From: a virus
Lineage: Duplodnaviria; Heunggongvirae; Uroviricota; Caudoviricetes
Strand: one strand, 5' to 3'
DNA length: 31,175 nucleotides
Virus record (IMG/VR): IMGVR_UViG_2565956711_000006
Coordinates: 1-31,175 of that record
The position numbers and the translations under genes are program-made. The first letter of the stretch is position 1; each line of letters opens with the position of its first letter. The notes below the pieces were generated by a model. The model saw only the letters and a list, made by a program, of their open reading frames with translations, did no database searches and was not told where the DNA came from. Shown here one piece after another: positions 652-21,664 of this stretch.

Positions 652-678
652 AAGGCCCCATTTAGGGGCCGCTTTTAT
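652..678. terminator. bidirectional intrinsic terminator shared by the convergent ORF 1..648 and ogr
   Basis: GC stem GGCCCC (654-659) / GGGGCC (665-670) with 5-nt loop, followed by a T-run on the plus strand (gcttttat) and on the minus strand (tttatttattt). Confidence 0.6.
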
Positions 679-917
679 AATGCCAGCGATAACTGATCTT
701 CGCCGTGGTGACTTCTTGGAAAAGCTTCTTGTGGCACCATCGCGCCGGGCGCTGGCTGGGTCTGGTTTAGTGAACCGTCTATTTCCGTCATGCTGGTGAA
801 ACAGTACCCGCACAACATATTTTGACACTGGTGATAGCTGCGCCGCACAAGCAAACTCAGCTCAACACTGGTTCTGGTTTTTGCTATTGCACGGCAGCGA
901 GGACAGCGCATTGCCAT
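675..917 (-). CDS. ogr: late-gene transcriptional activator, Ogr/Delta zinc-finger family
   Basis: 80-aa product MAMRCPRCRAIAKTRTSV...YHQCQNMLCGYCF with C-X2-C-X22-C-X4-C spacing as in P2 Ogr (recalled); AGGAGG 7 nt upstream of ATG at 917; lies directly downstream of D as in P2. Confidence 0.8.
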   Translation of the reverse strand: MAMRCPRCRAIAKTRTSVELSLLVRRSYHQCQNMLCGYCFTSMTEIDGSLNQTQPAPGAMVPQEAFPRSHHGEDQLSLAL

Positions 918-965: not shown

Positions 966-2084
966 TTAAGACGTTGAATCGTCACTCTCCGCTGTCCAGT
1001 CGTCGATTTTTACTTCCAGTTCCAGCGACGTGGTAAACCCTCCCCCGCCAATATCGTGAACGCACCGCGTTATCGTCCAGTTCCCACTGTCGATCGTGGA
1101 CTTAAAGCCGTAGACGCTGGCGGGCTGTTCCGGGTACAAATCTGCGCGGCCACGCGCCAGGGTGATACTGAACGTCGCCGCTCCACGCTGCAACTCCCGC
1201 CACTTAGCCGCAGCGGCACGCTTCGCCGCCTTTTCCGTCTTGAAGGTTTTACGGATAACAAAAACGTTACCTTCGGCCCCGGCCAGATAATCACCCTCTT
1301 TTTTGCTGGATGCAGGCTCTTTCTTTTTGGCCTGGCTGGTTCGTCGCCTGCGGGTGGTTTTCTTCACGGTAGTGGATGGTTTTTTGCCAAAGTTGAGATC
1401 AAGCCAGTATGCAGTTACGCCTGTGTACGCGTCGCGGTCAGCTACGTTAAACCGATGTTTATCACCGCTTGACCGGACGATCTCGATTACCGGCAGCGGC
1501 TTGCCACTCTGCGTCACTCCCTTGCCCGGCGTGATAAACAGAAGCATACCGTTTTTAATGGTTGCCACCGCGCCCAGCATTTCGGCCATGCGCGTTAAGA
1601 AGCTGATATCTGATTCACTCGTCTGATCAGCGTGGTCTATCTCAATCTTCGCCAGTTCTTCGCTGACGCCCGCACGCAGATCGTAGCGGCTGGCAATGCT
1701 GGCGACCACATCCCCCACGGTAATATCGTGCCAGCTATATTCCCTCTTCACGTTGAAGGTATCGCGGAAATCTGCGCTTCTGGCACTGATCGTTAGCTGG
1801 TCAGGCGGGCCAGCGTGTCCGATTTCGTCAACCGTATACACTCCCTTAAAAACCAATGGATCATTATCCCAGCCCAGCGCCACCGATATCTTTGCGCCGC
1901 GTGATGGTAATGCTACCTGCCCGTCAGCATCATCCAGAGTCAGATCCAGCGTGTCCGCTTCAAAGCCCCGGTTATCTGTCAGAGAAAGGGAGATCAGCCG
2001 GTTATCCAGCGCCGTAAGCTGCTTACCCTCAATCTCAATACTGAACGCCGGGCGCGGCGAATATCGGTTTTCTGTCGTGTCCAT
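966..2084 (-). CDS. D: tail protein gpD (late control gene D family)
   Basis: 372-aa ORF; N-terminus MDTTENRYSPRPAFSIEIEGKQLTALDNRL matches remembered P2 gpD/Mu N-type tail proteins; SD GAAGGAG upstream of ATG 2084; D-ogr order as in P2. Confidence 0.88.
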   Translation of the reverse strand: MDTTENRYSPRPAFSIEIEGKQLTALDNRLISLSLTDNRGFEADTLDLTLDDADGQVALPSRGAKISVALGWDNDPLVFKGVYTVDEIGHAGPPDQLTISARSADFRDTFNVKREYSWHDITVGDVVASIASRYDLRAGVSEELAKIEIDHADQTSESDISFLTRMAEMLGAVATIKNGMLLFITPGKGVTQSGKPLPVIEIVRSSGDKHRFNVADRDAYTGVTAYWLDLNFGKKPSTTVKKTTRRRRTSQAKKKEPASSKKEGDYLAGAEGNVFVIRKTFKTEKAAKRAAAAKWRELQRGAATFSITLARGRADLYPEQPASVYGFKSTIDSGNWTITRCVHDIGGGGFTTSLELEVKIDDWTAESDDSTS

Positions 2085-2151
2085 ATCAACTCCTTCATCA
2101 TGATGGGGTACATCGTCGCCACGCGCGCGCGCATGAACAACGCCCCGTCAT

Positions 2152-2169: not shown

Positions 2170-2241
2170 ACCCTTATTCATCGCATCGGCCTGCCATTGC
2201 CGCAATGATATTCGCAGTCATTAAACTGGCGAGGCAAATAC

Positions 2242-3435
2242 ATGGCCACTAACTACCATCACGGTGTAACCGTCACGGAAACCACCGACCTTAGCACGAT
2301 GATCACCGACATTGATTCGGCGGTGATCGGCGTTGTCTGCACCGCTGATGATGCGGACGAAACAGCGTTCCCGCTGGATACCCCTGTACTGATCACCCGC
2401 GTGGCTAACATGCTGGGCAAGGCAGGTAAAACCGGCACCCTGTTTACCACCCTGAAAGCGATTTCAGACCAGACCAGCCCGCAAACCATTGTGATCCGCG
2501 TTGCTGATGCTGCAAATATCGAACCGCCAGAAGGCGGCACCGCACAGACACAGGATCAACTGGTTATTGGCGGCACCGATGCAAACGGACGCTTTACCGG
2601 CATGTACGCGCTGCTGTCTGCCGAAATGCGCGTAGGCGTGCGCCCGCGTGTGCTGGCTGTTCCCGGTCTTGATACGGAAGCGGTGGCCGCACAACTCGGC
2701 GTCATTGCCGAAAAGCTGCGCGCGTTTGCTTACGTGGCAGCGAACGGCTGCAACAGCATCGCCGAAGTGAAGGAATACCGCGAACAGTTCTCCCAGCGTG
2801 AAATGATGGTTATCTGGCCTAATTTCATCTGCTACGACACCAACGCCGGAGCGAATGCCACCGTGCCCGTGGGTGCCCATGCGGTTGGGATGCGCGCCAA
2901 AATCGACGCAACGCAGGGCTGGCATAAAACCATTTCCAACGTGCCCGTTAATAACGTGCTGGGGATGGATCGGGATATCTATTTCACGTTGCAGGGCACC
3001 GATACCGACGCCGACGAACTGAACGCAGCAGGCGTTACCACGCTGATCAAGCAGGACGGCTACCGCATCTGGGGATCGCGTACCTGCGACGCGGAAACGT
3101 ATATCTTCGAAAGCTATACCCGAACCGCGCAGATCGTTGCGGATACCGTCGCCGAAGCACATTTCGCCTATGTTGATAAACCGCTTACCCCGTCGCTGGT
3201 AAAGGACATTGTGGACGGTATCAATAAGAAGCTGACCTCATATGTGACGGCTGGCAAGCTGCTGGGCGCCCGCTGCTGGTATGACCCGGAACCGAATACC
3301 TCGGAAACCCTGCGCAATGGTCAACTGACCATTAAGTACAACTACACCCCTGTTCCACCGCTGGAAAATCTCAGCCTGGTACAGGAGTTCACCGACGAAT
3401 ATTTCGCTACGTTTTCCAGCGCAGTGAATAACTAA
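2242..3435 (+). CDS. FI: contractile tail sheath protein gpFI
   Basis: 397-aa ORF; MATNYHHGVTVTETTDLSTMI... resembles P2 FI; followed by tube and E/E' genes. Confidence 0.92.
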   Translation: MATNYHHGVTVTETTDLSTMITDIDSAVIGVVCTADDADETAFPLDTPVLITRVANMLGKAGKTGTLFTTLKAISDQTSPQTIVIRVADAANIEPPEGGTAQTQDQLVIGGTDANGRFTGMYALLSAEMRVGVRPRVLAVPGLDTEAVAAQLGVIAEKLRAFAYVAANGCNSIAEVKEYREQFSQREMMVIWPNFICYDTNAGANATVPVGAHAVGMRAKIDATQGWHKTISNVPVNNVLGMDRDIYFTLQGTDTDADELNAAGVTTLIKQDGYRIWGSRTCDAETYIFESYTRTAQIVADTVAEAHFAYVDKPLTPSLVKDIVDGINKKLTSYVTAGKLLGARCWYDPEPNTSETLRNGQLTIKYNYTPVPPLENLSLVQEFTDEYFATFSSAVNN

Positions 3436-7382: not shown

Positions 7383-7832
7383 ATGATGATGATTCTGGGG
7401 ATGTTCCCCTTTTCACTGCAAACCACGCCTTACCAGAGTGCGAATAAAACCAACTCATGGCGGCACGTCAAAAACGATCGCGTGGGGAAATCCCCGCGCT
7501 ATCAGTTCATCGGCGCTGATGAAGAACCGTTCGTACTCAGCGGCACGCTGTACCCCGAAATAAGCGGCGGTGATGTGTCGCTTGTCATGCTGGAAACTAT
7601 GGCTTTTTCCGGGCGCCCGTGGCCCCTGATTGAAGGCACGGGCAGGATCTACGGCATGTATGTAATTGAGCAGATTACGCAAAACCGGACGGAATTTTTT
7701 AAGGACGGGAAGGCAAAGAAAATTGATTTTACGCTCAACCTGAAACGGGTAAGCGAGGACATACGGGAAAAGCTGGCGGAAATCACCAATGATGATGTGC
7801 TGTCTATGGTGAAAGCGGGGGTGAATTTCTAA
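7383..7832 (+). CDS. U: tail protein gpU
   Basis: 149-aa ORF MMMILGMFPFSLQTTPYQSANKTNSWRHV... immediately after T. Confidence 0.85.
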   Translation: MMMILGMFPFSLQTTPYQSANKTNSWRHVKNDRVGKSPRYQFIGADEEPFVLSGTLYPEISGGDVSLVMLETMAFSGRPWPLIEGTGRIYGMYVIEQITQNRTEFFKDGKAKKIDFTLNLKRVSEDIREKLAEITNDDVLSMVKAGVNF

Positions 7833-7943
7833 CTTTATTTTTTATGGCCAATACGTTCATTGTTGGCAGTGTGGTACCGAAATCTTCGGGCACCGTCACT
7901 TTTAACCGTGCTACAGCACGGTCATTTATGGCGGTGCTGTAGC

Positions 7944-7969
7944 TTCTATCAAAGGTTGGTTTGGGAGAA
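7944..7969. repeat. hix/gix-like 26-bp crossover site (left end of invertible tail-fibre segment)
   Basis: ttctatcaaagg tt ggtttgggagaa; inner 14 bp (7956-7969) is the exact reverse complement of 9791-9804. Confidence 0.7.
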
Positions 7970-8290
7970 GCGGCAAAACGGAATGTGGGAACAGGGGAAA
8001 ATCAGATACCTGATATGTCATCATATGCATCAGGTTCAGGCTGGCGAAAAATGCCAGATGGTTCAATTGAACAGTGGGGACGAATTAGTTTTCCTGGTGA
8101 ACACGGGCCTGTATCCGCCAATGTTTCATTCCCGATTCCATTTACACAGACACCGGGCATTGTAATTGTGTGCGATGGTGGTTTCGGGGGCGGGAATATG
8201 TGGGGGGCGACCAACTGGAGCACTACCGGCTTCATAGCTCACTGCAATTATGGTCTTGAAGGTGGTGCGTTTTTCGCTAAGGGCTGGTAA
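7958..8290 (+). CDS. alternative tail-fibre C-terminal exon (Hv'), silent in this orientation, no start codon of its own
   Basis: Frame open from the crossover site: [16 protein letters not shown]...[20 protein letters not shown]; shares LGLGE junction with H; stop TAA 8288-8290 overlaps the G' ATG. Confidence 0.7.
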
Positions 8291-8733
8291 TGATGAAATA
8301 TCTGTACGTAAACAACCTGGCATATCCTTACGAACTTCAGTCTCTTTATGTTGAAAAAGGTGAATGGCCTGAAGAAAAAGGTGTTGATATAGACGAAGTA
8401 ATTTTCAGGGAATATTTCTATGACACACCACCAGAAGGAAAATACAGATGTGTTGGAGAAGATGGACTGCCTGCATGGGCAGATATTCCTCCACCAACAC
8501 GTGAAGAACAAATTGCATCAGCCGAAACTAAAAAGCAGCAATTGATTAACCAGGCCAACGAATACATCAACAGTAAACAATGGCCAGGTAAAGCATCAAT
8601 TGGTCGTCTGAAAGGTGAGGAACTGGCGCAATATAATTTGTGGCTGGATTATCTGGACGCACTGGAGCTGGTCGATACTTCCAGTGCGCCAGATATTGAA
8701 TGGCCTACGCCTCCGGCAGTTCAGGCCAGATGA
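8290..8733 (+). CDS. alternative tail-fibre assembly chaperone (G'/Tfa')
   Basis: 147 aa; C-terminal LDALELVDTSSAPDIEWP parallels IDAVTATDTSTAPDVIWP of the minus-strand G; converges with and overlaps the 3' end of G. Confidence 0.8.
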   Translation: MMKYLYVNNLAYPYELQSLYVEKGEWPEEKGVDIDEVIFREYFYDTPPEGKYRCVGEDGLPAWADIPPPTREEQIASAETKKQQLINQANEYINSKQWPGKASIGRLKGEELAQYNLWLDYLDALELVDTSSAPDIEWPTPPAVQAR

Positions 8734-9307
8734 CATCCGGCGCGGTGCTGGTATCTGTTGCCGTCACCGCGTCAATGTAATTCAGCACAGCGTTAAGTCG
8801 GGTGTTTTCTGTCTGCATCAGCTTCCGCCCGGCCTGTAATTTCAGTTGAATCAGACTAATGGAAGCCATTGCAGTATCAATCAGTGACTGACGCTGTGCT
8901 TCTGCCGCGCCTACTGCGGCGCTATGCTGTGCCTCGGTATCCGTCACCCATTTCTCACCATCCCATTCATCGTATGGCGTTAATGGGGCGATAGTGGTTG
9001 TATTTTCAGGGTAATCACCCGGAACTGTGATTTCTTTGGTATCTCCCGTTTCGGTACTATAGACAACTTCACCGCGATGGTCTGGCACATATTCCCATGA
9101 ATTTAAATCTACAGAGCGACAGATTGCATAACCAGCTTTATGTGTACCTGGTGCATCCAGACAGGAACATGCCGGGATACCGACGCCGACAGCGAGATAT
9201 TCAGTTGATGTAGAAATATATTCCCGCGTTTCGCCATCATAGTTATGTACGATGATTTCCCCATCATTTAAAGCGTAACCGTCTTTTCCCAAAATAGCCT
9301 GTTCCAT
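8705..9307 (-). CDS. G: tail-fibre assembly chaperone gpG (expressed orientation)
   Basis: 200-aa ORF starting immediately after the H stop; conserved Tfa C-terminal motif. Confidence 0.85.
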   Translation of the reverse strand: MEQAILGKDGYALNDGEIIVHNYDGETREYISTSTEYLAVGVGIPACSCLDAPGTHKAGYAICRSVDLNSWEYVPDHRGEVVYSTETGDTKEITVPGDYPENTTTIAPLTPYDEWDGEKWVTDTEAQHSAAVGAAEAQRQSLIDTAMASISLIQLKLQAGRKLMQTENTRLNAVLNYIDAVTATDTSTAPDVIWPELPEA

Positions 9308-10852
9308 TTATGCAGCCCTCACAATGTAGTTAAATGCAATGTTTCGCGGGCTACCATCACCGGCGCCGGAACTGACATGATTGGTTCTATCCATTCGTTT
9401 ACTGTCATTTGTTGTTCCACTCCCATCCTTCCACGAATACAATAACCCGCCATCGCCAATGCTCAACTGCACCGCAAATACGGATGAACCGGATGAATAA
9501 ACATCTCCAGCCATGAGTGGGTTCCCTGTCCATCCATGCATTTCATGGTTATGTTCAAGGATAGATGCTGCCTGACTTGAAAGCAGCAGTCTCGCGGAAT
9601 CAACACCTCGCCCATCATCCCACCCGCGAATAAACTCACCGCGCAAATCCGGTAATTTTAACTTTGGGTAAGCCTTTGCCAGTTTTGGGTACTCTTCGGC
9701 AGAAAAAGGTGCACCGTTGCATTTCAGCCAGCCTGTTGGTGGTGTGGCTGAAGGCCACGGAACAGGCACACCAACGGGTAACGCTGAGCCTTCTCCCAAA
9801 CCAAGGTATTGGAGAATGCCGTTAACTGTCTTTCCCGATAAATCAGTTAAAGTGCTATCAAGCGGCTGCTTACCCGCCAGCGCATTCGTTACAGTGGTGG
9901 CAAAGTTTGGATCATTTCCCAGCGCTGCCGCCAATTCATTCAGCGTGTCCAGTGCAGCCGGGGATGATGCTACCAGTGCAGCAATTGCTGATTTCACAAA
10001 TTCCGTTGTGGCAATCTGCGTATTATTCACTGTCTGCGCCGCAGTAGGTGCGGTGGGTGTTCCGGTCATAGCTGGGCTTGCCAGCGGAGCTTTCAACGCA
10101 AGAGCGTTGTTAATGGTTGCACTGAAATTAGGATCATTGTTGATTGCAGTAGCAATTTCTTTCAGTGTATCCAACGTGGCGGGCGCACCTCCAATCACAG
10201 CAACCAACGCCGCCTGAACAAATGCGGTATTCGCCAGCTGTGTGGAGTTATTACCAGCCGTAGCAGTCGGCGCTGTAGGCGTTCCCGTCAGGGCCGGGCT
10301 TGCCTTTGGTGCATATTGTTTATGAGGGTCTGCCGCTGCGATGTGCGCCGCCAGTTGCTGATCTACGAAGGCTTTAACCTGGATTATCTGGTCATCAACA
10401 TACTGACGAGTCGCCAGTACTACCGAAGGGTCAATTTTCAGCGTCACGGCGGCGGTGCTGCTGACAATCAGGATCATGCGTACAACCTGTACGCGCCCGC
10501 TTCCCTCCTGTAACTGCGGCTTATACGTTTCCGCACAGTTGGCTACGGCAATCATATCGCCGTCTTTATCGAATAAACCGATTTCACGGATCCACCACCC
10601 GCCCTCGTCTTCAGGTATCACCTGCTCGGCAATAATCTGGTTGGCGTTATTCGGGTCAATGCTCAGACTATTAAGCGGCTTGCGGCGCAGCTCATGAACC
10701 AGCGCCGTTTGTGCCGGGTTCGGCGTCGGCAACACGCCGTTACCATCGCCTACAGCCATCTTGGTGATTTCAACCTGCGCACCCAATGCCGTGGCATTTG
10801 CCAGTTTCGCCGCGCCCACATTGGTTAGCACGGCATAATATTTAGTCGCCAC
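9308..10852 (-). CDS. H: tail fibre protein gpH (constant N-terminal part plus currently joined variable tip Hv)
   Basis: N-terminal region resembles P2 H (..AVLTNVGAAKLANATALGAQVEITKMAVGDG..); C-terminal tip has tail-collar-like motifs (PWP..GWLKCNGAPFS..LPDLRGEFIRGWDDGRGVD); the track starts at TTG 10873, but GTG at 10852 with GGAG upstream aligns better with the P2 H start. Confidence 0.85.
   Translation of the reverse strand: MATKYYAVLTNVGAAKLANATALGAQVEITKMAVGDGNGVLPTPNPAQTALVHELRRKPLNSLSIDPNNANQIIAEQVIPEDEGGWWIREIGLFDKDGDMIAVANCAETYKPQLQEGSGRVQVVRMILIVSSTAAVTLKIDPSVVLATRQYVDDQIIQVKAFVDQQLAAHIAAADPHKQYAPKASPALTGTPTAPTATAGNNSTQLANTAFVQAALVAVIGGAPATLDTLKEIATAINNDPNFSATINNALALKAPLASPAMTGTPTAPTAAQTVNNTQIATTEFVKSAIAALVASSPAALDTLNELAAALGNDPNFATTVTNALAGKQPLDSTLTDLSGKTVNGILQYLGLGEGSALPVGVPVPWPSATPPTGWLKCNGAPFSAEEYPKLAKAYPKLKLPDLRGEFIRGWDDGRGVDSARLLLSSQAASILEHNHEMHGWTGNPLMAGDVYSSGSSVFAVQLSIGDGGLLYSWKDGSGTTNDSKRMDRTNHVSSGAGDGSPRNIAFNYIVRAA
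9791..9816. repeat. hix/gix-like 26-bp crossover site inside H (right end of invertible segment)
   Basis: ttctcccaaacc aa ggtattggagaa, near-perfect palindrome; encodes ILQYLGLGE in the H frame; resembles remembered hixL/gix sites. Confidence 0.7.
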
Positions 10853-12360: not shown

Positions 12361-12719
12361 GCCTGGCCCCTCAATGTAATATCAGCGTTAAATGGCGTCT
12401 GATTGTCGGTGCGATTGGCCTGGATAGTGGCAACCAGCCGACCGGCACCCGGCGCGCTCAGGGTGATACTGGTCAGAGAGATCCGCGGTTCCCATAAATA
12501 CAGGGCGCTGTAGATGGCAGACATAACGCGCAGCTTCGTTATGGCGTTATCGACCGGCTGATCTATCAGGTTGAAAAGCTGTGAACCGTAAGCGCGGCGC
12601 ATTACACGGGAACCGATCGGCGTTAACAGAATATCGCCGATAGACTGCGCTATATGCTCGTTGTCGGTGATGGCATGGCCTGAACTGGCATTCATGCCGC
12701 TGTAACGGACTGTACTCAT
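12357..12719 (-). CDS. W: baseplate protein gpW
   Basis: 120-aa ORF, ATGA overlap with V stop; W-like position and size. Confidence 0.82.
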   Translation of the reverse strand: MSTVRYSGMNASSGHAITDNEHIAQSIGDILLTPIGSRVMRRAYGSQLFNLIDQPVDNAITKLRVMSAIYSALYLWEPRISLTSITLSAPGAGRLVATIQANRTDNQTPFNADITLRGQA

Positions 12720-13345
12720 ACCGGGCCACCTGTATTACTACCACCGGACTGGACGCCGCTATGTTTGTGAGAATGGACAACGACACCATTAGACGAAAGC
12801 GATCCACCTGAATGGGTAATATTGCCCTTCATTTCCCCGCCCTTTTGCACTTCCAGCGTGGCGGTGATCAGCTTGTTGGTGCAGACCACTTCCGGCGTGT
12901 CCAGGGTAACGCGCGTATCTGCCTTGACCGTTACCACCGGCACGGTGGCGGTAATGGATTCCGACGCGGTGACGCTTGCCGTTTTCACCCCGCTGACAAC
13001 CAGCGCGCTGGCCTCCGGGTCATATGAGATACGGGCGCCATCCGGGTGCAGGATCACGCAGGTGGTAGCGCCAGCATCTGGCGGCGGTGCGTCTTCGCTG
13101 TAAAGGCTTCCGGCAATGAATGCCGTTTCCATCTCACCGCAGGGGCACAAAATATAAACCTGTTCGCCCACTGTCGGCGCCCACCACGTCACGGCTTCAC
13201 CGGCGCGCGGCACTGCCCAGCGGATCCAGTCGGTTTTGTTCTCGCCGGTTTCGACGCGTGCAAGATACTTTTTCGTGTCCACTTCCAGCACGGTGCCAAT
13301 GCGGGCGAGATTGCAGATAAGGCGATAGAGTTCGTTTAAATTCAT
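12716..13345 (-). CDS. V: baseplate spike/central hub protein gpV
   Basis: 209-aa ORF MNLNELYRLICNLARIGTVLEVD...; first gene of V-W-J-I-H-G operon. Confidence 0.85.
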   Translation of the reverse strand: MNLNELYRLICNLARIGTVLEVDTKKYLARVETGENKTDWIRWAVPRAGEAVTWWAPTVGEQVYILCPCGEMETAFIAGSLYSEDAPPPDAGATTCVILHPDGARISYDPEASALVVSGVKTASVTASESITATVPVVTVKADTRVTLDTPEVVCTNKLITATLEVQKGGEMKGNITHSGGSLSSNGVVVHSHKHSGVQSGGSNTGGPV

Positions 13346-13483
13346 AGTGCTGACTGTTTCCCGTGGTGCCGGTTACGCTGTCCGGCGTCGCTTCCGCCCG
13401 GTAGCAGGCTTTACGACCGTTTCGGCTTTTGGGTTATGCAGTCAGTATCAGGAGTCGCGCGCGCGCAAACAACGCGGCGCCAT

Positions 13484-13501
13484 TGTGGCAGGTTGGTGAC
13501 A
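13484..13501. promoter_or_regulatory. TGT-N12-ACA dyad, candidate Ogr box for the V-operon late promoter
   Basis: tgt ggcaggttggtg aca; 20 of 22 nt identical to the FI-proximal element (cattgtNgcaggttgNtgacaa); candidate -10 gatact on the minus strand at 13444-13449. Confidence 0.55.
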
Positions 13502-13502
13502 A

Positions 13503-14147
13503 TCAAATCTCTTGCATGAAGGCGACAACAGTATCGGCCAGCCAGTCTAAATCACCCTCGGTCATGCCCAGGAGTTCACGCACCGGGTAGCGTGCACGGG
13601 CACCCGGCACCACGTTATCGACTTCACCGTACTGGTGAACGCTGGCGATTTCGGCGGTATGCCCCTGAAAGCCAACCACTGCCATGCCGCCCGTACCGTA
13701 AGCCTTAAGAAAGCGTGCGGTGCGCAGCTTGCGGAACATCGGATCCTTTCTGGTGCGGTTCTGCTTGGACTGGTTGAGATTGATTTCAATATAGCGCTGG
13801 ATATCGCGCTTATAGAACGTGCGCAGGGCACCGCGATCCACGTCATAGCCGGTGATTGCGCGGTGCTCACCCCTGCCCGTGGTTCGCCAGTTGCGTAACT
13901 CCCTGGCCTCATCATTCCATATGAACTTTATCCCGCCCTGGGTGCGCAGGATTTTGCGGCGGCGGGCCGGATAGCTTTCACCGCTGGGGTTCTTCTGGCT
14001 GGCGATACGCTTTTGCTGGCGCTTACGCAGCCCGATCGCAACGTCGCGCGTCAGCTTGCGACGGTGCCCCGGCGAAAGCTGCGCGGCCACGCTGGCTAGC
14101 CAGTCGTCTAACTGCTGGAAGAGGGGATCGGTTTGTTGTCCTGCCAT
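13503..14147 (-). CDS. S: tail completion / virion morphogenesis protein (gpS-like)
   Basis: 214-aa ORF in the P2 S position between R and V; assignment by position and general resemblance, not a firm match. Confidence 0.65.
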   Translation of the reverse strand: MAGQQTDPLFQQLDDWLASVAAQLSPGHRRKLTRDVAIGLRKRQQKRIASQKNPSGESYPARRRKILRTQGGIKFIWNDEARELRNWRTTGRGEHRAITGYDVDRGALRTFYKRDIQRYIEINLNQSKQNRTRKDPMFRKLRTARFLKAYGTGGMAVVGFQGHTAEIASVHQYGEVDNVVPGARARYPVRELLGMTEGDLDWLADTVVAFMQEI

Positions 14148-14602
14148 GTTTCGCCGCTGACCTCATCAACAAATACCAGTGACCACGCGCCAATTTCTGG
14201 CCCCGGTGCAGGGTCAGCACGGTGACGGGTGACGATCTCGCCATCTTCACGGGTAACTATCACTGCTTCATCAGCCTGAATCTGGATCAGCACGTCCATC
14301 GTGCTGTTACTCAGAATATCGGCTTCAAATGTTATGCCGTTCTGCTGCCTGTCCGGGTTAAACAACAGATCAGGCTGATATAAGCGCGCCCATGCCAGCA
14401 CCGGCACGCTGATAGTATCCAGAGATTCAGGGTAATCCATCACCAGCACTTCCAGCGTATAGCGGTACTCAAACGCAGCAGCACGCTGGCCGGTGCTGAC
14501 CATACGACCTTTTCGCAGATAAACAGCCAGATTATCGGGATTCTCACGCAGCCAGGGCACATGCTGGCTTATCATCTGGCGCAGTAAATCGGGTTTAAGC
14601 AT
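14108..14602 (-). CDS. R: tail completion protein (gpR-like)
   Basis: 164-aa ORF in the P2 R position downstream of the lysis genes. Confidence 0.65.
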   Translation of the reverse strand: MLKPDLLRQMISQHVPWLRENPDNLAVYLRKGRMVSTGQRAAAFEYRYTLEVLVMDYPESLDTISVPVLAWARLYQPDLLFNPDRQQNGITFEADILSNSTMDVLIQIQADEAVIVTREDGEIVTRHRADPAPGPEIGAWSLVFVDEVSGETWQDNKPIPSSSS

Positions 14603-18952: not shown

Positions 18953-19798
18953 TCAGCAGTCAGCAAGCTGGGCGTTAGAGTTTTCAGTTGCGCCGGTCGC
19001 TTCCGGGCGGCGGTATTTACTGGCGTCCTGGGTAGAAAGCTGCGCTTTCATCTCGTCGAACTCAGAGCGCAACTTATCCACCGCTTCGGCGGTCTGCTTG
19101 TTCTTAAGCTGCCCTGCGCTCAGTTTTTCCATCTTGTCCAGCAATTCACCCTGACTTTCCGCTACCAGTTCAACCGCCTGGCGGATATCGCCATTTTCAC
19201 GATCGAAGTGCTGGCGGGTTCCGGTCAGCATTTCCTTGATACGGGAAAAGAAATTCTTCCCGGTGTCGGACGCTGGCGGCTCTTCCTGCGCAAATTCGAG
19301 GGATGATTCCAGGGTTTCAGTGAAGAAGCATTCAGGTGCGTAGTGACGCGCAGCCAGTGGGTTGGCGCTGGCGTTCTGGGTGCAAAACTTCATCATTTCG
19401 GTGCCCAGGCTCGCCGGGTTATCGGTACAGGCCAGCCCCATAAGGTAGGCTTTTCCGGTGTCGGCAAAGGACGGATGCACCTCAATGCTATGGTAGATTT
19501 TCTGGCGTTTGCCTTTCAGTTCTACCAGTTCGTCCGTGGCGTCCACCTTCACCAGAAGCGCCAGTTTGCCCTTTAGCGGGCCCTCGGCAATCTCTTCTGC
19601 TTTGGCTTCAACCACGTCACCATACGCGCGGAAATCGCTTGTCGGCGACCAGCCTAAAATGTGCTCCAGATTGACGCGGGCGCCATATACCTGGGGATCG
19701 TACTGTTCGGCCATTTCGGTGATGTGCTGACGTTCCAGTACTCGACCGTCACAGGTTGCGCCCTCTACTGCGGCGCGGAAAAAATTTGTCATTGGCAT
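18953..19798 (-). CDS. O: capsid scaffolding protein gpO
   Basis: Start at ATG 19798 (MPMTNFFRAAVEGATCDGRVLERQHITEMAEQYDPQVYG...), which parallels the remembered P2 gpO N-terminus; the track's longer ORF extends upstream without support. Confidence 0.82.
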   Translation of the reverse strand: MPMTNFFRAAVEGATCDGRVLERQHITEMAEQYDPQVYGARVNLEHILGWSPTSDFRAYGDVVEAKAEEIAEGPLKGKLALLVKVDATDELVELKGKRQKIYHSIEVHPSFADTGKAYLMGLACTDNPASLGTEMMKFCTQNASANPLAARHYAPECFFTETLESSLEFAQEEPPASDTGKNFFSRIKEMLTGTRQHFDRENGDIRQAVELVAESQGELLDKMEKLSAGQLKNKQTAEAVDKLRSEFDEMKAQLSTQDASKYRRPEATGATENSNAQLADC

Positions 19799-19887
19799 GG
19801 TGACAAAGCTCCGGGTTGGTAAGCGATTGATATTAACCAGTGCCCCAATCATTCCCTTTGCGGCCGGAAGGCGCAAAGCCTTCACTT

Positions 19888-19905
19888 TGTCGGACTCAGG
19901 CGACA
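19888..19905. promoter_or_regulatory. TGT-N12-ACA dyad in the divergent O / P late-promoter region
   Basis: tgt cggactcaggcg aca; centre 19896.5, which is 98.5 bp from the O ATG and 55.5 bp from the P ATG. Confidence 0.5.
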
Positions 19906-19951
19906 ACCAGCGGCGATATTGTTGCGCGCGCGAGCGCGATAGCCTGTTGCC

Positions 19952-21664
19952 ATGAATACAGCCGAAGACCTCAGCACAAAAGCCAAAAGCCTCTACTGGC
20001 AGGCGTTTAGCATCACTCAGATTTCTAAGGAAATCGGGGTGAGCATTAACACGATCTACAGTTGGCGCCGCCGCTATGAATGGGATAAAGCTACCCCCAT
20101 GCAGCGGGTGCAGGATCGCACGCACGTTCGTTACCTGCGCCTGGTGGAAAAGGACGACAAAACCCCGAAGGACTTTAAAGAAATTGACCTGCTGGCGCGC
20201 CAGCTTGACCGCTTTGAACGGCATGAGCGACGCGACCAGGAGAAAGAGAAGAAGGCGAAGACCCCGAAAAACCATTTCACCGAAGAACAGATAACTCAGC
20301 TTCGCGCCCTGATCTTTGATTCGCTATACGAGCATCAAAAACGCTGGTTCAAACAGTGGAACCGGCGTAACCGCTTTATCCTCAAATCGCGCCAGATTGG
20401 TGCCACCTGGTACTTTGCCCGCGAAGCGCTGTTGCGTGCGCTGGAAACCGGAAATAATCAGATATTCCTGTCAGCCAGCCGCGCCCAGGCGTTCCAGTTC
20501 AAGCGGTTCATTCAGAAGCTGGCAAGGGAAATAGGAGTAGAACTTAAGGGCGGTGATGCCATTGAGTTAAGCAACGGTGCGATCCTGTATTTTCTCGGCA
20601 CCTCCGCCGCGACGGCCCAGAGCTACACCGGCGATCTGTACCTTGATGAAGCCTTCTGGATCAGTAATTTCATCAAACTGCGCTCGGTGGCCGCAGGCAT
20701 GGCGACACAAAAAGGACTGCGCCGCACCTACTTTTCGACGCCTTCCAGTGAAGAACATGAAGCCTATCCCTTCTGGACTGGCGATCAGTTCAATGAAAGC
20801 CGCCGCCGATCCGATCGGGTGGATATCGACACCAGTTATAAGGCACTGAAAAACGGCAAGCTATGCGGGGATAACATCTGGCGCCAGATAGTCACGCTGG
20901 AAGACGCCATGAAGCTCGGTTTCGATCTGGTTGATATTGATGAAATCCGTAGCGAAAACTCCCTTGACGAATACGCCAACCTGTACGGATGTACCTTCGT
21001 TAAAGCAGGGGAACGCGCCTTCGACTACAACACAATTTTGGGCTGCGGCGTTGATGGCTACATGCCGGACGCGTGGCCGGACTGGAACCCGTTTGCACCT
21101 CGCCCGCTGGGTAATCGCCCTGTCTGGGTTAGCTATGACCCCAACGGCAGCAGCGGCAAAGGCGACAGCGCCGGGCTGGTTGTGCTGGCCCCGCCAGCCG
21201 TGCCGGGTGGCAAGTTCCGCGCGGTAGAACGCCACCAGTTACGCGGCATGGAGTACGAAGAGCAGGCCAAATTTATTAAAGAGATCACCACCCGCTACAA
21301 CGTGCAGCACATTGCTATCGACGGCACAGGGATCGGCGATGCGGTTTATCAACTGGTGATCAAGTTCTTCCCGCAGGCGGTTAAATACAACTATTCACCG
21401 GTTCTTAAGCGGTCGATGGTGCTCAAAATGTTGATGGTCATTCGTGCCGGGCGCTTTGAGTTCGACGCCGGAATGATGGATCTCGCACAGTCGTTTATGA
21501 CCGTGCGTAAAGTCACCGCAGGCGGCGTTATTACCTACCAGTCCGATCGGGCCCGTGGCAGCAATCACGGCGATCTGGCATGGGCAACTATGCAGGGCAT
21601 TTACAACGAACCGATCGGCGCGGAAGTGACCGGCGATAACGGCAGTTTTGTGGAGGAGTTTTAA
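19952..21664 (+). CDS. P: terminase large (ATPase) subunit gpP
   Basis: 570 aa; N-terminal HTH-like segment then ATPase and nuclease regions; divergent from O as in P2. Confidence 0.9.
   Translation: MNTAEDLSTKAKSLYWQAFSITQISKEIGVSINTIYSWRRRYEWDKATPMQRVQDRTHVRYLRLVEKDDKTPKDFKEIDLLARQLDRFERHERRDQEKEKKAKTPKNHFTEEQITQLRALIFDSLYEHQKRWFKQWNRRNRFILKSRQIGATWYFAREALLRALETGNNQIFLSASRAQAFQFKRFIQKLAREIGVELKGGDAIELSNGAILYFLGTSAATAQSYTGDLYLDEAFWISNFIKLRSVAAGMATQKGLRRTYFSTPSSEEHEAYPFWTGDQFNESRRRSDRVDIDTSYKALKNGKLCGDNIWRQIVTLEDAMKLGFDLVDIDEIRSENSLDEYANLYGCTFVKAGERAFDYNTILGCGVDGYMPDAWPDWNPFAPRPLGNRPVWVSYDPNGSSGKGDSAGLVVLAPPAVPGGKFRAVERHQLRGMEYEEQAKFIKEITTRYNVQHIAIDGTGIGDAVYQLVIKFFPQAVKYNYSPVLKRSMVLKMLMVIRAGRFEFDAGMMDLAQSFMTVRKVTAGGVITYQSDRARGSNHGDLAWATMQGIYNEPIGAEVTGDNGSFVEEF

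Follow-up and report, generated by a model that had tools for sequence, protein, structure and literature searches.

A predicted Ogr-type late promoter upstream of the V operon in a SEN4/SEN5-like P2-family prophage, and its likeness to a divergent D/FI site

The region between genes S and V of this viral DNA raises the question of whether an element repeated almost perfectly at a distant, divergent gene pair marks an activator-dependent late promoter, and which operons such a promoter would serve. The window, as the whole analysed stretch of 31,175 nucleotides is called here, carries CATTGTGGCAGGTTGGTGACAA at 13481-13502 and CATTGTTGCAGGTTGCTGACAA at 2149-2170, both on the plus strand. As an earlier note on this DNA had reported, the two 22-mers differ at 2 of 22 positions; these are 22-mer positions 7 and 16, and both fall within the 12-nt interior of the perfect TTGT-N12-ACAA dyad that each 22-mer holds. 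A third copy at three or fewer mismatches was not found in the window, and 100 shuffles yielded zero such pairs. Taken as a whole, the comparisons described below make it very probable that, in a SEN4-like prophage of the P2 family, the V-operon late promoter has its upstream activator site at 13483-13502.

Most of the window aligns with the Salmonella phages SEN4 and SEN5 (Peduoviridae, genus Senquatrovirus) at 95-97% identity, and on this identity the source of the window is a SEN4/SEN5-like (Senquatrovirus) P2-family Salmonella prophage. P2-type R, S, V, D, FI, U and O were assigned by Pfam, as was a homologue of the activator gene ogr. The genes that matter here are the following:

675-917, minus strand: ogr homologue (Pfam PF04606), the predicted late activator gene, downstream of D and on the same strand
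966-2084, minus strand: D (Pfam)
2242-3435, plus strand: FI (Pfam)
7383-7832, plus strand: U (Pfam)
12716-13345, minus strand: V, the baseplate spike gene (Pfam Phage_base_V, Phage_spike, Apex), which heads the V-W-J-I-H-G operon
13503-14147, minus strand: S-like virion morphogenesis gene (Pfam Phage_tail_S), which ends the O operon
14108-14602, minus strand: R (Pfam)
within 18953-20275, minus strand: O (Pfam)

Comparison with the P2 record showed the FI-FII-E-T-U block to lie in the orientation opposite to that of P2, and because of this inversion transcription of D, with ogr after it, diverges from that of FI. The same divergent D/FI layout was present in 80 of the 80 related loci (L035-L114) found with the D protein at 65-100% identity, and thus defines a large clade of P2-like phages.

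Other parts of the gene map differ from SEN5. A 215-aa ORF with a hydrophobic N-terminus occupies 1-648, just beyond ogr and outside the SEN5-aligned region (the megablast match starts at 673); a Pfam search with this ORF gave no match, and it may be cargo or flanking host DNA. Between U and G, within 7833-8733, about 670 bp is missing from SEN5, and two tail-fibre genes are found here:

7961-8290, plus strand: tail-fibre C-terminal fragment (Pfam Gp53-like_C)
8290-8733, plus strand: second tail-fibre assembly gene (Pfam Caudo_TAP)

Both are convergent with the active H-G pair, and the layout of 7833-8733 resembles that of an invertible tail-fibre segment's silent half; a search of the window for a partner crossover site and for an invertase gene found neither. 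About 80 bp past the U stop codon there is an inverted repeat of 16 nt, nearly perfect and with a loop of 2 nt (7910-7943), which may be the terminator of the FI-U operon.

The sequence TGT-N12-ACA is the consensus of the P2 late promoters PP, PO, PV and PF, all of them dependent on Ogr, a zinc-finger activator with the motif CX2CX22CX4C (PMC3931495). The bare motif is not enriched in the window, with 6 occurrences against 5.8 expected; the extended form TTGT-N12-ACAA is enriched, with 3 found against 0.61 expected and three or more in only 2 of 100 shuffles. The window has no further perfect copy, and the three fall between S and V, D and FI, and O and P, the intergenic regions in which late promoters are located in P2:

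2151-2170: D/FI dyad, perfect TTGT-N12-ACAA, centre 2160.5
13483-13502: S/V dyad, perfect TTGT-N12-ACAA, centre 13492.5, adjoining the S stop codon
19887-19906: O/P dyad, perfect TTGT-N12-ACAA, in the divergent O/P intergenic region

The V element had been described as overlapping the 3' end of the S-like gene. The TGA stop codon of that gene lies at 13505-13503, directly next to 13502, the last base of the 22-mer; the two adjoin and share no base.

A candidate activator is encoded in the window itself. The 80-aa product of the minus-strand ORF at 675-917 is an Ogr/Delta zinc-finger protein (PF04606 Ogr_Delta, E 1.5e-13) with cysteines spaced C5-X2-C8-X22-C31-X4-C36, that is, CX2CX22CX4C. This product is just 30% identical to P2 Ogr, which could speak for binding of the dyad by another protein, such as an immunity repressor, Cox or a host factor. 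The dyad is, however, the exact Ogr/Delta consensus, is located as are the annotated activator sites of P2, and occurs only before late operons; a different protein at these sites is thus highly improbable, and the Ogr homologue is the preferred candidate. The TGT-N12-ACA/Ogr system has been known since the 1980s, and kindred late promoters are B-dependent in coliphage 186 and Delta-dependent in satellite P4 (Psid and PLL). In P2, recruitment of polymerase by Ogr goes through the alpha subunit.

The P2 record (NC_001895) places activator sites upstream of V, upstream of FI, and at one position common to pO and pP. The window shares with P2 pV and pF a TGT-N12-ACA-type dyad about 55 bp before the start, placed before V and FI, with 81.5 bp separating the FI ATG from the dyad centre in the window and 83 bp in P2; in both, an Ogr-family activator is encoded near D. 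The dyads of the window are perfect and extended to TTGT/ACAA, whereas those of P2 are imperfect, with TGT-N12-CCA at pF and pO/pP. Related late-promoter motifs have been reported in P2-like phages of Ralstonia (PMC5694545). Smp131 (TGT-N12-ACA) and phiRSA1/phiRSY1 (TGTTGT-N13-ACAACA) have, as here, a dyad before late operons together with a C4 zinc-finger activator, although the Ralstonia phages differ from the window in arm length, spacing and gene order.

The spacing between dyad and -10 hexamer was examined with a geometric rule calibrated on the mapped starts of the P2 record, in which the hexamer centred 46 bp from the dyad centre occupies -12 to -7. The rule predicts the P2 starts at 3016 (PP, hexamer TAGCCT) and 3127 (PO, hexamer GAAACT) exactly, while P2 pF has an offset of 47-48 bp. 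Within the window an xAxxxT hexamer is centred at exactly 46 bp in five of five directions, an offset predicted to place each dyad at -55.5:

13449-13444, minus strand: V -10-like GATACT, predicted start near 13437 (minus)
2117-2112, minus strand: D -10-like GACGAT, predicted start near 2105 (minus)
2204-2209, plus strand: FI -10-like AATGAT, predicted start near 2216 (plus)
19940-19945, plus strand: P -10-like TAGCCT, predicted start 19952 (plus)
19853-19848, minus strand: O -10-like AATGAT, predicted start 19841 (minus)

The earlier note had paired the two elements with gatact (minus strand, 13449-13444) and gatatt (plus strand, 2207-2212), and both hexamers are indeed found toward the operon, at distances of about 42.5 and 47.5 bp from the 22-mer centre. 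The proposal of GATATT as the FI -10 did not hold, as its offset is 49 bp, a position at which A2 and T6 persist in 13% of relatives, compared with 100% at 46 bp. The hexamer that relatives conserve as the FI -10 is AATGAT (2204-2209), 3 bp upstream of GATATT.

The D/FI region provides the clearest view of this geometry. In 23 non-redundant relatives, the hexamer at offset 46 has both A2 and T6 on the FI side in every case (23/23, 100%) and on the D side in 91%, compared with 0-17% at the remaining offsets between 38 and 55; as a pattern among sequences, this specificity is the strongest result of the analysis. A single perfect TGT-N12-ACA dyad is found in 79 of 80 related D/FI regions, with an interior that is free to change from one lineage to another. 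The FI ATG is 80.5-85.5 bp away from the centre of the dyad in all of these loci, and the D ATG 75-84 bp away in most of them. One dyad flanked on either side, at exactly 46 bp, by a -10-like hexamer implies a bidirectional pair of late promoters, and the single dyad at 2151-2170 most likely serves both D and FI. The site had previously been termed the FI element. Its interpretation as a late promoter stands, but its setting is the divergent D/FI one, and its extended likeness to the V element runs toward D (42/47), not toward FI, along this feature:

2112-2140, minus strand: D-ward core promoter, with TTGTTC (2140-2135), a 17-nt spacer containing a CG tract (2122-2132), and GACGAT (2117-2112)

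The predicted leaders on the two sides are 21 nt for D (start near 2105 to the ATG at 2084) and 26 nt for FI (start near 2216 to the ATG at 2242). A scan of the D/FI region returned two weak sigma-70-like matches elsewhere and a 5-bp "terminator" that is the dyad arm, all judged to be chance.

D closes the F operon in P2 and lacks a separate promoter there, whereas in the window D, and then ogr, needs one and would use the FI dyad. Because D has no other possible promoter in the present gene order, an Ogr-dependent D promoter is a near necessity, and since ogr shares the strand of D and follows it at a distance of 48 bp, such a promoter would give ogr late positive feedback. It is conceivable that one Ogr site here drives a fifth late unit, D-ogr, created by inversion of the FI-U block. 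P2 itself has an arrangement of this kind at pP/pO (site annotated at 3057-3087), where one dyad lies midway with a -10-like hexamer 46 bp to each side, like the O/P region of the window and the D/FI pair proposed here.

In the S/V region the dyad is followed, in the direction of V, by a -35-like hexamer, a spacer and a predicted leader:

13467-13472, minus strand: V -35-like TTGTTT, 17 bp upstream of the -10-like GATACT
13456-13466: alternating CG tract CGCGCGCGCGC, in the V promoter spacer
13346-13436, minus strand: predicted 5' leader of the V-operon mRNA, about 92 nt

The core TTGTTT-17-GATACT matches the sigma-70 consensus at 3/6 and 4/6 positions. A consensus scan of 13250-13650 found no sigma-70-like promoter, and a terminator scan of the same interval found no match, including after S. 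The lack of both a strong sigma-70 promoter and a terminator in this region fits a weak, activator-dependent promoter, while the -35-like TTGTTT at 17-bp spacing makes some activator-independent activity possible. The predicted fold of the V leader has a z-score of -0.47, with no significant structure. Two differences from P2 are seen here: the P2 record sets the V start site at the V start codon, compared with the leader of about 92 nt in the window, and the S-V gap holds a terminator and orf30 in P2, compared with a dyad directly after the S stop codon in the window.

The conservation of this region was assessed in SEN4-like phages and prophages, one Salmonella and one Citrobacter genome among them, which gave 23 distinct S/V intergenic sequences. 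GATACT has no variable positions (0/6), the -35-like TTGTTT has one (1/6) and the 17-nt spacer two (2/17); the dyad interior varies at 7 of 12 positions, and both substitutions and indels occur in the leader, from which 38 nt are deleted in L028. The dyad arms are invariant (0/8 positions variable), a result of limited statistical weight because the SEN4-like relatives differ so little, with S proteins 87-100% identical. Judged by a deletion of 38-41 nt in L028 and L130, and by +2 and -1 indels elsewhere, the leader appears to be partly dispensable. The sequence footprint from the D/FI site is stronger than that from the V site. In other lineages, dyads upstream of V have an xAxxxT hexamer at offset 46, namely GAAACT (L132), CAGCAT (L145) and CACCAT/CATCAT (L180/L186); in many relatives of P2 proper, as in P2, the dyads are all imperfect.

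With palindromic ends, a position directly after the S stop codon and a 50-aa CDS (SEN5_13) annotated there in SEN5, the element might also be taken for an RNA hairpin or terminator ending the O operon, or for part of a small protein-coding gene. A hairpin, however, would pair over only 4-5 bp, with a 10-12 nt loop and without a T run, in an interval where the terminator scan was empty, and the same dyad occurs in divergent intergenic regions entered by no upstream transcript; the 50-aa frame, for its part, has no Pfam match and is broken in relatives by indels of +2, -1 and -38 nt. There is next to no chance that the element is of either kind. A Rho-independent terminator at S/V was rejected, as 13250-13650 contains no G+C-rich stem-loop with a T run, and an Rfam scan of the whole window gave no match; the 50-aa ORF at 13347-13499 (plus strand) was rejected on its lack of a Pfam match and the frame-breaking indels. 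The SEN5 record (NC_028701.2; L001) annotates one 50-aa "hypothetical protein" CDS in the S/V region, SEN5_13 (9265-9417), and another in the D/FI region, SEN5_27 (20707-20859); both are probably spurious calls over promoter regions.

Since S has no terminator after it, a substantial share of V expression could come from transcription that begins at the O promoter and reads through. In a stronger version of this idea the S/V dyad binds the activator but is auxiliary, with the V operon transcribed mainly by read-through. The scan, which found no terminator-like site between S and V, would agree with this, as would a set of Edwardsiella-type relatives: in an Edwardsiella piscicida genome (L005) and two viral contigs (L032, L033), whose S-like protein is 44-47% identical, S directly adjoins V with no TGT-N12-ACA, and the V operon is presumably part of the O transcription unit. 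Because these relatives have contiguous S and V genes and no dyad, a separate V promoter is neither indispensable nor universal in the family. On the other hand, P2 has a separate pV, and in the 23 SEN4-like sequences the arms, -35-like and -10 hexamers are invariant or nearly so while the interior and the leader vary, with indels. A merely auxiliary role for the dyad is therefore unlikely, and an activated V promoter at 13483-13502 remains the preferred reading.

The likeness between the V and D/FI sites is longer than 22 bp, with 42 of 47 aligned bases identical and a 2-nt gap between 13456-13502 and 2122-2170. When the 50 bp downstream of each dyad was compared, read toward each gene, the V, D and P sides were alike (z = 6.3 for V vs D, 3.6 for V vs P, and 3.3 for D vs P); in this 50-bp comparison the FI and O sides had no likeness to them. 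The V, D and P sides have a module in common: TTGTY lies 23 bp away from the centre of the dyad and is followed by the 17-nt spacer, which holds an alternating CG tract, and by the -10. The tracts are 9-11 nt in length and lie at 2122-2132 (D), 13456-13466 (V) and 19924-19932 (P); the window holds four alternating CG runs of at least 8 nt, three of which flank the three dyads. Among diverged lineages, a CG run of at least 6 nt is present on the D side in 16/23 and on the FI side in 5/23. A CG spacer of this kind is Z-DNA-prone and supercoil-sensitive, and that it is functional, perhaps tuning or gating late transcription via template topology, is a speculative and distinctly doubtful suggestion. 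Late transcription in P2 depends on phage DNA replication, a requirement on which this topology idea might bear.

The V and D/FI dyads are identical at 10 of 12 interior bases. Because the interiors are alike though unconstrained among relatives, we infer that the promoter module was duplicated or converted in the lineage of the window, that is, that its copies share common descent. A shared V and D/FI interior as a general rule was rejected, as it fails in the one other lineage compared by eye; in IMGVR_UViG_3300029943_000317, the V dyad TGTTACCCACCCCTGACA and the D/FI dyad TGTCAGCAGACCGCAACA have unlike interiors. The same interior identity, despite a free interior in relatives, and the 47-bp likeness in one orientation, both of which point to common descent, could mean that the V copy is only a remnant of duplication or gene conversion (for example at the FI-U inversion) without promoter function. 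Function is nonetheless compatible with common descent: both the arms and the -10 hexamer show conservation, the spacing of 46 bp is kept exactly, and other lineages with unrelated interiors also have V-upstream dyads with xAxxxT at offset 46. A functionless V copy is very improbable on this evidence; beside the common descent of the module, the arms appear to be under functional constraint as well.

In the O/P region, the promoter of P (large terminase) has TAGCCT at the 46-bp offset, the same hexamer and offset as P2 PP. The predicted P start, 19952, is the A of the P start codon, and because the start falls on the start codon, with no Shine-Dalgarno sequence and no alternative start codon, the P mRNA may be leaderless. 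On the other side, SEN5 probably has the start of gene O misannotated, at the equivalent of 19852 in the window. The ATG at 19798 or 19792 is where homology to P2 gpO starts, the frame from 19852 to 19798 is broken in relatives by 13-nt and 1-nt insertions, and the predicted O transcription start at 19841 falls downstream of 19852.

The motif, the synteny, the presence of an Ogr gene, the 46-bp geometry and the combination of conserved arms with a free interior all agree with the earlier proposal that both elements are activator-dependent late promoters. By analogy with P2, we infer binding by the Ogr homologue, dependence on that activator, and the start sites. Late in infection, the Ogr-family protein encoded at 675-917 would bind the TGT-N12-ACA dyad centred at about -55.5 and, once bound, would recruit host sigma-70 RNA polymerase to the weak TTGTTT-17 bp-GATACT core. 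Transcription would then begin near 13437 on the minus strand and proceed through V-W-J-I-H-G. The near-identical site at 2151-2170 would be of the same kind, most likely activating both D and FI.

In summary, the predicted V promoter is, by its sequence, an ordinary P2-type late promoter, previously unannotated in Senquatrovirus; the SEN4/SEN5 paper mentions neither promoters nor ogr. The analysis yields a late-promoter map with predicted starts for Senquatrovirus, which includes SEN4/SEN5 and many Salmonella/Citrobacter prophages, and its practical value is modest: two RefSeq "hypothetical protein" CDSs are probably promoter regions, and the start of gene O is corrected. The conceptual gain is small, with some interest attaching to the proposed bidirectional D/FI pair across a large FI-U-inverted clade of P2-like phages.
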